Shown: piece after piece, positions 27,878 to 32,015 of the stretch
How the letters are laid out: each line of letters opens with the position of its first letter
How positions within the stretch are numbered: the stretch's first letter is position 1
From: a phage
Direction: 5' to 3' (one strand)
Sequence record: PZ179882.1
DNA length: 64,000 bases
Position numbers and translations under genes: made by a program
The notes under the pieces: generated by a model
Databases searched by the model: none
Told to the model about the DNA's origin: nothing
What the model saw: the letters and a program-made list of their open reading frames with translations, nothing else

Positions 27878-28192
27878 CTAAAAGAAACTTCTTTCACAAT
27901 TTTTTCCACTGAACCATGCACTTACCGCTTTCTTGGTCTCAGGAGCAGTGTTATCCATAAACCATTCAAAGGCAGCCTTTTTATGATTCTGGAGGGCTTC
28001 TCGGGCTTTAATCTGCTCACGGTCTATTAACACTAACATATGAGCCTTTCTTGTCACCATGGACTTCTTATGATTTTTTGAATACTCCCAGTCATTTGTC
28101 CATCGCATTGTCGTTGCGAATTGAAATACTGCTTCTTTAATTTTAGTTTCGTAAATTTCACGAGCCTTTGAGTATAACATCACTACCTCCAT
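27878..28192 (-). CDS. hypothetical protein
   Basis: 104 aa ORF. Confidence 0.45.
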   Translation of the reverse strand: MEVVMLYSKAREIYETKIKEAVFQFATTMRWTNDWEYSKNHKKSMVTRKAHMLVLIDREQIKAREALQNHKKAAFEWFMDNTAPETKKAVSAWFSGKNCERSFF

Positions 28193-28262: not shown

Positions 28263-28982
28263 TTAGGATTCTTCTAAATGTCTTTTCTGAAAAGTTGATA
28301 CCATACTACGATACGGTTCATTTGGATACCCGTGTTTTATAGCTTCCTTTGTAAATTTTCTCCATCCATATTTAGTTTCTTTCCAAAGCTCGAATAATTC
28401 ATCTTCATATTGCCATATAGTTAAATGAGAACGCTTTGCAGCTTTAATTCCATTAATATGCTTTTCTTTTACTACAGGATTACTTAGTTTCTTTTTAATA
28501 ATATTACTAACTTTTCTAACAAAAACTGGGTCCTTATATCGTTGCGAAGTTTTTATTGAAGTGTTTAATTTAGCTTCCGGTGTGGATGTGACCTCTTTCA
28601 TCTTTTTCTTCATATGCTGTATATGATTAGGATTTTTCCATAAATTTATAGAATGCTTTTTGCATTTTATCCTAGTTTCATCTGCAACCTTTCCTCCTTC
28701 ACCTCCGTATGACAGGTTAACACAGTTTTTTCCATATTTCAATTTACCTGCCATGATATATAATATTTCAGCTTGTACCATTTTATCATAATTATCAAAA
28801 ACTTCTAAAACCGTTTTTGTTAATATGTGGTCATTTGACACTTTTACACGTTCTATATAATTTCCACTACCAACATACGAATCATTGATGTTATTAGTTA
28901 TATGTCGACCATAATAGTATTTCTTAATACCTGTCTTTAAATTTAATATTTCAGTTTTATAGATAGTAAAATATTTTTTCAT
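28263..28982 (-). CDS. GIY-YIG family endonuclease (Seg-like, free-standing)
   Basis: 239 aa; N-terminal IYKT...YYYGRH...YVGSGNY GIY-YIG-like module; lysine-rich C-terminal repeats (WKNPNH, YKDPVF, LSNPVV). Confidence 0.6.
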   Translation of the reverse strand: MKKYFTIYKTEILNLKTGIKKYYYGRHITNNINDSYVGSGNYIERVKVSNDHILTKTVLEVFDNYDKMVQAEILYIMAGKLKYGKNCVNLSYGGEGGKVADETRIKCKKHSINLWKNPNHIQHMKKKMKEVTSTPEAKLNTSIKTSQRYKDPVFVRKVSNIIKKKLSNPVVKEKHINGIKAAKRSHLTIWQYEDELFELWKETKYGWRKFTKEAIKHGYPNEPYRSMVSTFQKRHLEES

Positions 28983-29965
28983 TTTAATAATACCGTTTCA
29001 GCAATTTCTTCCCAACCGTTTTTGTCGGTCATAATAAAGTCAGCAAGATAAAGAGCAGTACGCAGTGAAACATTGCGTAAACGATTAACATTAACTTTCA
29101 TCCATGATAATGCTTTATAAGTTTCTTCATCAGAAAGACCGCGCTTTTGCATCATGTCGGTTGAAAGAATAACATCTTCAACCCTGACCATAATTTCTTC
29201 ATTAGTGTGAACACCCAAATCTAAATAAACTGAGCGGGACACTAATGCTTGTAAATGTGGAGCAAGTTTAGTACCACGGTCTAATTCGCGGTCAATATCA
29301 ACGTTTGTGATAAAAACAATCGTTCCTTTAAATTCAAACTCACGCTCAATGCCTTTTTCTTCTAAGTAAGAAGATGCAGTGCTCCAGCAGACTTTACGGG
29401 TCTCTCCAGTGTCCAGAGCAGCTTTTAGAAGATTAAGAATGTCCATATCAGAGAAAACATCCACATCATCAATCAAAAGGACAGAATTCTCTTCACGATT
29501 ATTCCAAAGCTGCTCATAAAGACCAATACCAGAGATTTTACCATTAATGCTTTTATATTCAATGTATCCATTATCATTTGCTTTATTTAAAGCTTTATCT
29601 AAAGAATACGTTTTACCAATACCTGCTGCGCCAGAGATAATTAATGAACGAATATTTCCATTAATAATACCATTCGTCATCATTCCCATAACATTAAATC
29701 TTTTATTAATGCGGGTTTTCATATCTTCATATGATTCTTTAACTTCTTCAACTTTTACACCATCATATGAAATATCTGATTTGTAAACCCAAACACCGCG
29801 ACGTTTACCGTCAATTTCAACAAAAACTTTACCATCTCCTTGTGCATCTACCGGAGCATTATCTGGGAACCATTCGCCTAAGAGCTCAAAAGTTCCAGAG
29901 ATTTCTTTACCGAAGTAGATACCCTTATTGATAGTTACAGTTTTCATTTTATTCTCCAATTTCAC
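28979..29965 (-). CDS. P-loop NTPase
   Basis: 328 aa; Walker A ISGAAGIGKT and Walker B-like VLLIDDVD. Confidence 0.55.
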   Translation of the reverse strand: MKLENKMKTVTINKGIYFGKEISGTFELLGEWFPDNAPVDAQGDGKVFVEIDGKRRGVWVYKSDISYDGVKVEEVKESYEDMKTRINKRFNVMGMMTNGIINGNIRSLIISGAAGIGKTYSLDKALNKANDNGYIEYKSINGKISGIGLYEQLWNNREENSVLLIDDVDVFSDMDILNLLKAALDTGETRKVCWSTASSYLEEKGIEREFEFKGTIVFITNVDIDRELDRGTKLAPHLQALVSRSVYLDLGVHTNEEIMVRVEDVILSTDMMQKRGLSDEETYKALSWMKVNVNRLRNVSLRTALYLADFIMTDKNGWEEIAETVLLK

Positions 29966-29979
29966 ATTTGTTTTGATAG

Positions 29980-30014
29980 GGTAATAGTATCACACTACTA
30001 CCCTGCTGTAAACA
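29980..30014 (-). promoter_or_regulatory. T4-type early promoter
   Basis: Minus strand GTTTACA, 17 nt, TACTAT. Confidence 0.5.
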
Positions 30015-30016
30015 AT

Positions 30017-30280
30017 TTATTTTAATGTTTGCCAAATTTTTACTGCTTCGCGACGAGATACTTCTACAGCTCCAAGTTCTACAGCTTTTTGGCGTCGCCG
30101 AGCGTGTAAGTCATAATGTTTAATGCGTTTATCTTGAAACCAAGAACGTTTCATTCCTATTGCTTCTGCCATTTCGTGAAGCTCTTCAATATCTCCATCA
30201 GTGAACATATGACAATTTTTAGTTGGATGACCGCGAAGTTTCCATCCATGATTCATTAAAACATCTACGTAAACTGTCAT
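30017..30280 (-). CDS. small conserved protein (DUF4031-like by recollection)
   Basis: 87 aa; motifs GHPTKNCHMFTD and HYDL. Confidence 0.35.
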   Translation of the reverse strand: MTVYVDVLMNHGWKLRGHPTKNCHMFTDGDIEELHEMAEAIGMKRSWFQDKRIKHYDLHARRRQKAVELGAVEVSRREAVKIWQTLK

Positions 30281-30495
30281 TGATTCTTCTCCAAATAAGT
30301 TTCGATAATTTTCTGGGCAAGATAAACCGCGTTATCTTCAGTTGCGTCTTCTAAGAAACTTTCAAAACACTCTGAAATTTCTTCTGTATCAATCAACTTT
30401 TTTACTTCAATTGGTGTAATTTTCATTTTGTTTTTCCGTTTAAGTGTTTGTTTTGATAGTTGTATAGTACCATAAAGCTTTATGCTTGTAAACAA
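30277..30495 (-). CDS. hypothetical protein
   Basis: 72 aa acidic protein. Confidence 0.4.
   Translation of the reverse strand: MFTSIKLYGTIQLSKQTLKRKNKMKITPIEVKKLIDTEEISECFESFLEDATEDNAVYLAQKIIETYLEKNQ
30460..30493 (-). promoter_or_regulatory. T4-type early promoter
   Basis: Minus strand GTTTACA, 17 nt, TACTAT. Confidence 0.5.
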
Positions 30496-30510
30496 TTTTG
30501 TGAAAAATTT

Positions 30511-30540
30511 TTGAAATAAAAAAGGGAGCCCGAAGGCTCC
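30511..30540 (-). terminator. intrinsic terminator (CUUCGG hairpin plus U-tract)
   Basis: Plus strand aaaaaagggagcccgaaggctccc; minus strand gives a GC stem, UUCG loop and U-run. Sits after the 337-aa gene. Confidence 0.6.
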
Positions 30541-30543
30541 CTA

Positions 30544-31557
30544 TCATTTATAATAACTTCGGTGGTTTTCAAGATAAACCCTCTCAAGGAAGTCATCCCA
30601 AAAACCCATGTCTACTTTTTGCTGCATACCGTTCTTAGAAGCTTCAGTAGATGCTGCTTCTACTTGATCGACCACATCTTCCAAAAACTCTTGAACCGTT
30701 TTAAATGGATGTTTACCCAACTTCACGTCGAGAATAAATGGAGCATCTTGGAGTGGATAAACCAAGTCACCAGTTTTGTAAATTTCCAATAGTTGGAGTC
30801 CACCACGGCAAGCATGACTCAGAGCTTTCCAGTCAATACCTTCATTGGCTTCGGCCTTACGAGCACGTTCACCGTATTCAGCATCTAATTTGTTCAGTGA
30901 CTGCTTAAGCTCAATAAGAGAAAGCGTTGTCTGATATTTACGACCCAACACTGTGTAGAACGTCTGTGGGCCTGTTTTCTCATGATTATGGAACACCCAT
31001 TCACAGAATTCGTTTTCTGGAAGACGATGCTTAATATCTTCAACTTTAGTACGACGCTGCTTAATAGAACCATCTTCTTGGTAATCAACCCATTTCTCAG
31101 GGATTTGATTAACTACTTTCAATACATCACGTAATGCAGCCAAACGAGAACCCTTAACGCCGTATTTAGAAGCTTGCTTACGGACATATCCTAAATAGGA
31201 TTTCATGTTAGTCGTATAAAAACGAGAACGGTTGTCTTGAATAAACTTCCACACATCAGGCAAATCAGATTTAACCACTAACTCAGGTGGAGTGTGAAGC
31301 ATATCTAACGCTACAGTTTCACCATCTGCTGCTAATTTAAAGAAATATTTAAGACTATACAATTCGTGGTCAATATCATCTTTAGTGTTTTTAGATGATG
31401 TGTTGTTAGTGTTTTTACTCATATGCTCTTTAACATTTCCGATAAGAATATCACGAGCAGGAGGAACAAAGATTTCTTTAAAATCTACATCAGATTCTGG
31501 GGTAGAAGTTCCATAAAGATGACTACCAAAATAGCTTTTCATTACTGTTTTCATCAT
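30544..31557 (-). CDS. predicted nucleotidyltransferase-fold protein
   Basis: 337 aa; N-terminal YFGSHLYGTSTPESDVDF fits the hG[GS]...D.D minimal nucleotidyltransferase motif. Confidence 0.45.
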   Translation of the reverse strand: MMKTVMKSYFGSHLYGTSTPESDVDFKEIFVPPARDILIGNVKEHMSKNTNNTSSKNTKDDIDHELYSLKYFFKLAADGETVALDMLHTPPELVVKSDLPDVWKFIQDNRSRFYTTNMKSYLGYVRKQASKYGVKGSRLAALRDVLKVVNQIPEKWVDYQEDGSIKQRRTKVEDIKHRLPENEFCEWVFHNHEKTGPQTFYTVLGRKYQTTLSLIELKQSLNKLDAEYGERARKAEANEGIDWKALSHACRGGLQLLEIYKTGDLVYPLQDAPFILDVKLGKHPFKTVQEFLEDVVDQVEAASTEASKNGMQQKVDMGFWDDFLERVYLENHRSYYK

Positions 31558-32015
31558 TCAGCCTTATATTCAATAACAGGACATACTTTAGCTTTACGAG
31601 CTTTTAAAAATTCAACGATAACCGATTTCTTGGGTTGAATAGGAGGTAAACCTTTATACGCCCTATCAATATTTTCTACGTGTAAAGCATAATCCTTTTT
31701 CCATTTATAATCTTTATATTTTTCACGCAGTTGTGCAGGAATAACAAATGAACCGATAATAAGTAAAACAACCAAAAGTGCAAGTATAAATGCCGATGGA
31801 AGAAGAGTCCATAAACTACCAAAAATAAGCCATTTCTGTATGATTTCTGCACAGATAATAGTTAGACCTGCGAGTATAGTACATCCGAAAAAAGAAACGA
31901 AAAATGTAGGGATAACAATAGACCAAAAGTATGCACACAGTGTCTTAGGTCGTTTCCATTCGTCGTTAAACAGTTTGAATAATTTATAGTGCCAAGAGTT
32001 TTCATTAATAATCAT
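31554..32015 (-). CDS. membrane protein
   Basis: 153 aa with several hydrophobic helices; 4-nt overlap with the upstream gene. Confidence 0.5.
   Translation of the reverse strand: MIINENSWHYKLFKLFNDEWKRPKTLCAYFWSIVIPTFFVSFFGCTILAGLTIICAEIIQKWLIFGSLWTLLPSAFILALLVVLLIIGSFVIPAQLREKYKDYKWKKDYALHVENIDRAYKGLPPIQPKKSVIVEFLKARKAKVCPVIEYKAE

Follow-up and report, generated by a model that had tools for sequence, protein, structure and literature searches.

Between nrdC.9 and nrdC.10 some T-even phages carry an additional gene that others lack, which raises the questions of what this gene encodes and why it resides at this particular site. We addressed both in a 64,000-nucleotide stretch of phage DNA (sequence record PZ179882.1, hereafter the window), the genome of a Tequatrovirus (T4-like phage), for which an earlier note, made from the letters alone, had proposed a Seg-like GIY-YIG endonuclease inserted selfishly between two resident genes.

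The gene and its existing annotation

The open reading frame delimited in the earlier note proved exact in its coordinates, on the minus strand, and in its length of 239 aa (Table 1), and its Met1 aligns with Met1 in 90 of 93 relatives. The note had also placed it between small accessory ORFs and a P-loop NTPase, and the flanking genes are indeed nrdC.9 (104 aa, DUF7203) and the P-loop gene nrdC.10. The 4-kb stretch around the ORF has matches in 741 phage records, with identity reaching 97-98% in the best.

It should be emphasized that the gene is an ordinary, previously annotated selfish element. Its family assignment is already known, because GenBank carries a seg-like label in RB32 (DQ904452 / NC_008515), then in T6 and in many other records. 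RB32ORF093c, which lies between nrdC.9 and nrdC.10, is described as 'putative site-specific intron-like DNA endonuclease; similar to seg', and its T6 counterpart, gp092, as 'DNA endonuclease'. These two and the copies in RB51, RB14 and AR1, which carry the same 'putative site-specific intron-like DNA endonuclease' label, are the gene studied here, sharing its position and 97-99.6% of its nucleotides with no substantive difference, although what is recorded for them is database annotation ('similar to seg') only. A 2010 review counts two seg-like genes in RB32 and six in T6 (PMC2993671), and the present gene is presumably among them. Our literature search returned no paper that names RB32ORF093c or nrdC.9, or that characterises the endonuclease gene biochemically or genetically; for nrdC.10 the sole paper deals with its AAA motif. 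The AR1 and RB68 records call the gene 'segE', though it is not an orthologue of T4 segE. The T6 RefSeq record mislabels nrdC.9 (DUF7203, 100 aa) as 'HNH homing endonuclease', and many GenBank records label nrdC.8 through nrdC.11 'thioredoxin', a propagated mis-annotation that apparently stems from the gene-name prefix.

Table 1. Features of the nrdC.9-nrdC.10 interval, in window coordinates
Feature	Position	Strand	Details
Seg-like GIY-YIG gene, probable homing endonuclease	28263..28982	-	239 aa plus stop; = RB32ORF093c / T6 gp092
GIY-YIG catalytic domain, residues 1-96	28695..28982	-	beta 4-14, beta 20-29, helix 41-47, beta 52-62, helix 65-86
Basic helical repeat region, residues 99-190	28413..28688	-	five helices, 17-aa period, 26% K+R
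C-terminal three-helix domain, residues 191-239	28266..28412	-	common to T4 SegA and SegF
nrdC.10 recoded last six codons plus stop	28979..28999	-	TGA overlaps endonuclease ATG (ATGA)
nrdC.10, upstream host gene (conserved P-loop/AAA-like)	28979..29947	-	3' end = presumed target
nrdC.9, downstream flanking gene (DUF7203)	27878..28192	-	homology with empty sites resumes at window 28266 (CTAAGACAAAAAG)

Assignment to the Seg-like GIY-YIG nucleases

Standard profile searches of the protein were negative. A Pfam scan returned no family even at E<=1, including PF01541, PF19835, NUMOD3 and NUMOD1, and there was no match in NCBIfam at E<=10 or, with phmmer, among PDB sequences at E<=10. The earlier note had named a profile search (GIY-YIG, NUMOD) as a check on its reading and the lack of a significant GIY-YIG match as grounds for rejection. 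In the same Pfam scan, however, SegF and SegG, which served as controls and which the T4 record annotates as GIY-YIG homing endonucleases, were likewise without any match, and T4 SegC, SegD and SegE fell below the PF01541 cut-off. The Pfam miss is therefore not a refutation; as a criterion it is too strict, because it fails SegF and SegG too and does not discriminate within the Seg group. That its thresholds miss two annotated T4 Seg proteins in addition to the protein studied here is a practical warning that 'no GIY-YIG hit' is unfit as a reason for rejecting Seg-like genes.

More sensitive tests were positive. The protein matches PHROG 314 'homing endonuclease' (E=1.8e-30), and tblastn retrieved T4 SegB (E=3e-5), 'segA' of phage VR26 (E=7e-14) and many further 'Seg-like' genes. 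BLASTP against T4 SegA gave an alignment (E=6e-9) over residues 21-232 that reaches the C-terminus. A word-indexed protein search gave only two matches, and an exhaustive HMMER search was needed to recover 1,447 relatives at E<=0.001. Among the 93 relatives that were aligned, Pfam recognizes SegE_GIY-YIG in 28, GIY-YIG in 13 and NUMOD3 in 32. The profile of these 93 sequences aligned with I-TevI in hhalign at a probability of 92% (E=6e-7), and the motifs came out in register; run against PDB sequences it again brought up I-TevI in register, although at a non-significant E=0.3.

The structural evidence points in the same direction. AlphaFold run on the single sequence gave an unusable model (pLDDT 42) and was replaced by a run on the 93-sequence alignment, which reached a mean pLDDT of 95.4 and a beta-beta-alpha-beta-alpha topology over residues 4-86, with the three-stranded sheet and helices of the GIY-YIG core. 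Foldseek with the full model found no match in the PDB, whereas the fold of the model matches I-TevI and four other GIY-YIG nucleases, and against viral models (BFVD) there were 93 matches at E<=0.001, of which the named ones are nearly all Seg-like or GIY-YIG endonucleases. These positive lines of evidence are mutually independent. Together with the alignments to SegA, SegB and I-TevI and the invariance of E72 and N89 described below, they bear out the reading that the note had offered: the protein has a GIY-YIG fold and belongs to the Seg-like family.

Catalytic residues

The key residues of the catalytic domain are Y8, Y23, G25, H27, D34-x-Y36-x-G38-S39-G40, E72, N89 and G92-G93-x-G95-G96. 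The 'GIY' motif reads T6-I7-Y8 and the 'YIG' motif Y23-Y24-G25. Both motifs quoted in the earlier note are present, YYYGRH at 22-27 and YVGSGNY at 36-42, but the latter had been misassigned, since it belongs to a third signature, D-x-Y-x-G-S-G at residues 34-40, which is specific to the Seg subfamily. The full Seg signature, common to T4 SegA-E, is present in the protein (H-x-T...D-x-Y-x-G-S-G after YIG; GG-x-GG after Asn). Its residues H27, T29, D34, Y36, G38, S39, G40, G93 and G94 each occur in at least 89% of the 93 relatives, and all but T29 in at least 96%. Across the same set G25, Y36, G38, E72 and N89 are invariant, while Y8, Y23, H27, D34, S39 and G40 are conserved in at least 96%; for the classical motifs the counts are 90/93 for Y8, 92/93 for Y23 and 93/93 for G25. 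In the hhalign alignment the equivalents of I-TevI Y6 and Y17/G19 were found, and E72 and N89 align with catalytic E75 and conserved N90.

The catalytic arginine is harder to place. R27 of I-TevI falls in a gap opposite the Seg-specific loop in the hhalign alignment, and no arginine is invariant across the Seg subfamily (93 relatives). The helix after G-S-G carries a basic patch, with K or R in 62-75% of the 93 relatives at positions 44, 47 and 48, and in the window protein R26, R45 and K47 are no more than candidates for an equivalent. From the fold and the conserved residues we infer a nuclease activity, and the protein is predicted to be a metal-dependent DNA nuclease.

The I-TevI catalytic domain (PDB 1LN0) has 18% sequence identity to the protein, and the helix that bears R27 is replaced in the Seg subfamily by the H-x-T...D-x-Y-x-G-S-G loop; I-TevI is, moreover, intron-encoded, with a zinc finger and its own DNA-binding domain, unlike the free-standing gene studied here. 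T4 SegB, SegC, SegD and SegE share the signature Y-x-Y...K-x-Y-I-G-x-H-x-T...D-G-Y-x-G-S-G...E...N-L..GG-x-GG, but at 20-30% identity they differ in their C-terminal halves, insertion sites and targets. T4 SegA, a free-standing GIY-YIG homing endonuclease encoded between uvsX and beta-gt, has the same three-part layout of Seg-type GIY-YIG domain, basic linker and C-terminal domain. Identity to SegA, however, is only 22%, the genomic site is another, the SegA target is uvsX, and SegA passes Pfam GIY-YIG and NUMOD3 whereas the present protein passes neither.

Basic linker and C-terminal domain

The lysine-rich repeats that the earlier note had seen at the C-terminus do exist, but they occupy the centre of the protein and not its extreme end. 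The content of lysine plus arginine over this central region compares with 15% in residues 1-96. Its model helices, of about 15 residues each, span 101-116, 118-132, 135-150, 152-166 and 169-190, and the last four start at [N/T/D]-P. The periodicity in the sequence itself is weak, offsets 17 and 34 alone reaching z>2 with a family-wise p of 0.12. Pfam NUMOD3 matches in 32/93 relatives and not in the studied protein, and we regard the region as a putative NUMOD3-like DNA-binding linker. The C-terminal domain shares with T4 SegA the pattern W..lW...G....k.A...G.P...Y..M...F and may be a helix-turn-helix-like DNA-binding module, a putative assignment; no Pfam family matches it either in this protein or in proteins that have that domain alone in common with it.

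Occupied and empty sites

Synteny supports the view of the earlier note that the gene is an intergenic selfish insertion. T6 and RB32 are occupied and T4 and T2 are empty, with nrdC.9 and nrdC.10 in the latter two about 95-100 bp apart and no gene between them. The gene was found in 67 phage records, always at this site and at 97-99.6% nucleotide identity, and the uninterrupted empty junction, queried with that of T4, in 434. The insertion reading is correct because 434 empty records stand against 67 occupied ones and the flanking genes are contiguous in T4 and T2.

Sequence around the site was compared in eight carriers and 11 non-carriers, all Tequatrovirus genomes from GenBank. Of the 100 variable sites in the flanks (534 nt upstream and 492 nt downstream), none is fixed or strongly associated with the gene, and carriers resemble non-carriers in their flanks as much as members of each class resemble each other. 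It follows that the gene occurs on many flank haplotypes and that the junction block described below is the sole linked difference. Mean pairwise identity within the gene is 98.1%, similar to that of the flanks, which gives no indication of a very recent sweep. An intact ORF is present in 8/8 sampled carriers and synonymous codon changes exceed non-synonymous ones (for example 15 to 5), a pattern in the codons which indicates that the intact copies are under purifying selection.

The junction and the recoded end of nrdC.10

The junctions are exact and identical in 8/8 carriers. In gene orientation the typical empty site reads ...GAAGAAATYGCT GAG GTT ACT CTT CTG AAA TAA TTCATAAGAGGMCTTCTATGACAAAAAGG..., whereas carriers read ...GAAGAAATYGCT GAA ACG GTA TTA TTA AAA TGA AAAAAT...[gene]...GAATCC TAA GACAAAAAG... 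Thus the endonuclease starts on the nrdC.10 stop codon, with an ATGA overlap and no intergenic spacer, and about 15 nt of spacer are replaced in carriers. Over the last 21 nt of nrdC.10 carriers and empty sites differ at 12 positions, yet the peptide changes only from AEVTLLK to AETVLLK. This recoded allele is present in 8/8 gene-carrying genomes and 0/11 gene-less ones in the junction alignments, and it is the only gene-linked difference within about 500 nt on either side. At gene-less loci surveyed across T4-like lineages (those from IMG/VR are mostly of other genera) the nrdC.10 protein ends in ...IAEVT[L/M/Q]L[K/R]*, and the nucleotide core of this end is conserved as well. We infer that the recoded 21-nt block is an immunity allele at the predicted homing target; it could also be mere hitch-hiking donor sequence.

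Among empty sites T4 itself (NC_000866, 10344-10375; compare window 28979-29000) has an atypical nrdC.10 3' end, in which GAG has become ACG and a 1-nt insertion shifts the frame, such that the protein ends ...IATGYSSEINS* in place of the conserved ...IAEVTLLK*. The change lies exactly within the predicted target of the endonuclease and might therefore alter sensitivity to cleavage.

Orthologues in other genera and decayed copies

Association with the end of nrdC.10 extends beyond the genus. Klebsiella phage Merci (Jiaodavirus; nrdC.10 74% identical) and Serratia phage 92A1 (nrdC.10 60% identical) have, immediately behind nrdC.10, orthologues about 45% identical to the endonuclease. Over nrdC.10 Merci shares 97.3% identity with its nearest gene-less relative, and homology stops exactly after GCTGAAGTAAC, inside the same conserved motif; the last nrdC.10 codons have therefore been replaced there too.

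Some copies are damaged. In RB3 (locus L057, 151-877) a 7-bp insertion splits the gene into ORFs of 96 and 159 aa, and the AR1 copy (protein D4Z9P3) is truncated and annotated at 165 aa. The orthologue of Serratia phage 92A1 (locus L046, 3001-3711) has an in-frame stop at codon 18, and in phage FL12 the gene was matched in two pieces. Empty sites together with intact and decayed copies amount to the cycle of invasion, decay and loss that is classic for homing endonuclease genes. With orthologues at the same position in three phage groups, its empty, intact, frameshifted and stop-containing stages are all visible.

Expression

An early promoter-like site, TTTACA-17-TACTAT at 30012-29984, lies upstream of nrdC.10, which actually begins with the ATG at 29947, behind a GGAG, and not with the GTG at 29965 given in the ORF list. 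The start of the endonuclease gene has no recognisable Shine-Dalgarno sequence, and no RNA hairpin was found over the start codon (z=-0.79). The gene is probably transcribed together with nrdC.10 by read-through from the upstream early promoter-like site and probably translated at a low level by termination-reinitiation coupling to nrdC.10. A sigma-70-like match, TTGGGA-17-TATTAT at 29015-28987, was considered as a promoter of its own and treated as chance; it ends 5 nt before the ATG and is therefore too close to serve the gene.

Probable homing to the 3' end of nrdC.10 and its alternatives

What, then, keeps the gene at this site? Most probably it is a free-standing homing endonuclease gene of the T4 Seg (GIY-YIG) type, composed of nuclease domain, NUMOD3-like linker and SegA/SegF-like C-terminal domain, that homes to the nrdC.10 3' end. 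The recoded junction, its status as the sole linked block and the position at the end of nrdC.10 in other genera together make the conserved 3' end of that gene the likely target. During co-infection with a gene-less relative the enzyme would cut the relative's DNA at or near this end (...GCTGAGGTTACTCTTCTGAAATAA...), and repair of the break by recombination on the carrier template would transfer to the recipient the gene along with the recoded end of nrdC.10 next to it. The outcome would be intronless homing, visible also as localized marker exclusion, while the carrier would be protected by the 12 differences that leave the nrdC.10 peptide almost unchanged. Intronless homing has been demonstrated experimentally for SegF, SegG, SegE and SegB (PMC2988022, PMC2993671, PMC13096335). 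The closest models are T4 SegF and SegG, which are similarly free-standing between conserved genes, present or absent among close relatives, associated with a donor allele that differs from the recipient near the insertion, and overlooked by Pfam GIY-YIG. For those two, cleavage and biased inheritance were shown experimentally (Belle 2002 and Liu 2003, as cited in PMC2993671), whereas for the present gene they are predicted. Among characterized T4 Seg enzymes SegA targets uvsX and SegE uvsW, and cutting away from the insertion site is possible (PMC2988022). Because Seg enzymes can cut at a distance, the real target could lie outside the flanks of about 500 nt compared here.

It could be argued that the gene is instead a resident relic, the descendant of a Seg-like homing endonuclease that no longer cuts or moves and is kept because it is harmless. 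The decaying copies in RB3, AR1 and 92A1, the missing canonical ribosome-binding site and the literature, in which we found no experimental data on the gene, fit such a history, and in-gene diversity equal to that of the flanks suggests long residence. The window copy and 8/8 sampled copies are nevertheless intact, the conserved catalytic-core residues are all kept, synonymous changes outnumber non-synonymous ones, and the many different flank haplotypes are as expected if the gene still moves or recombines in, so that we hold this unlikely. That the protein is not a nuclease at all, being a DNA-binding or regulatory protein with a superficial likeness to Seg proteins, is very improbable: the Pfam GIY-YIG miss, which speaks for it, is common to T4 SegF and SegG, and the lack of an assignable catalytic arginine has to be set against the match of the modelled fold to I-TevI and four further GIY-YIG nucleases and the invariant Tyr, Glu and Asn at catalytic positions.

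The protein may also be an active GIY-YIG nuclease whose main role is not homing to the adjacent site but general exclusion, through cutting competitor genomes elsewhere, or recombination and amplification of distant loci, as for SegB. Precedents exist: in T6, SegB promotes amplification of anti-defence loci, in cis and at distances of tens of kb (PMC13096335); the targets listed for SegA and SegE lie in genes next to their own (PMC2988022); and the SegG paper, by its title as given in PMC2993671, reports a distant cleavage site. The nrdC region is, in addition, a variable accessory region with other indels. Local homing is nevertheless the best fit to the tight, repeated link with the nrdC.10 3' end in three phage groups and to the recoded junction, which leaves only a slim chance for a predominantly non-local role. 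A bolder version of homing to nrdC.10 strikes us as doubtful, namely that there is a dedicated nrdC.10-3'-end homing family that tracks one conserved coding motif (...ATTGCTGAAGTWAC...CTGAAATAA) across several T4-like genera, is expressed solely by translational coupling and might also drive recombination or amplification of its neighbours in the manner of SegB. The neighbours concerned would be nrdC.10 (AAA/nSTAND-like), nrdC.11 (nucleotidyltransferase) and a DUF4031 cassette, and the gene, were this true, would shape a hypervariable and possibly anti-defence region and not be merely selfish. On its own, one more free-standing Seg-like gene in T-even phages is of low importance. This study adds to the existing annotation a concrete target prediction, the nrdC.10 3' end, together with a presumptive immunity allele and the cross-genus conservation of position, a modest extension.

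Neighbouring genes

The region upstream of the gene has further features of note. nrdC.10 contains a Walker A motif, GAAGIGKT, with weak, sub-threshold Pfam matches to AAA and nSTAND3, and nrdC.11 (30544-31557) matches RlaP, the Pol-beta-family nucleotidyltransferase of an RNA-repair pathway (E=2e-11); the two look like an NTPase plus nucleotidyltransferase pair. A second indel, at approximately 29966-30543, lies between nrdC.11 and nrdC.10, where the window exceeds T4 and RB32 by about 464 nt. The additional sequence holds two ORFs, one with a DUF4031 match (Pfam E=1e-21) and one of 72 aa, on the minus strand at 30017-30280 and 30277-30495, and the cassette appears to be missing from records in which only 88% of the 4-kb query is matched (RB32 was checked directly). 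Two copies of the early-promoter-like sequence GTTTACA...TACTAT...CTATCAA, at 30492-30464 and 30012-29984, flank the cassette, an arrangement suggestive of promoter-mediated modular shuffling. In T4 nrdC.11 is followed by mobD, an HNH homing endonuclease gene; in the window its place is taken by a hydrophobic 153-aa ORF (31554-32015, minus strand), which is 92% identical to RB32ORF096c, annotated 'replaces mobD'; this position is a second nearby homing-endonuclease site that differs between close relatives. Directly downstream of the nrdC.11 stop, at 30523-30542, the window shares with T4 and RB32 a strong GC-rich hairpin (AGGGAGCC-TTCG-GGCTCCCT) with a T-run behind it, which is likely an intrinsic terminator ahead of the next early promoter.
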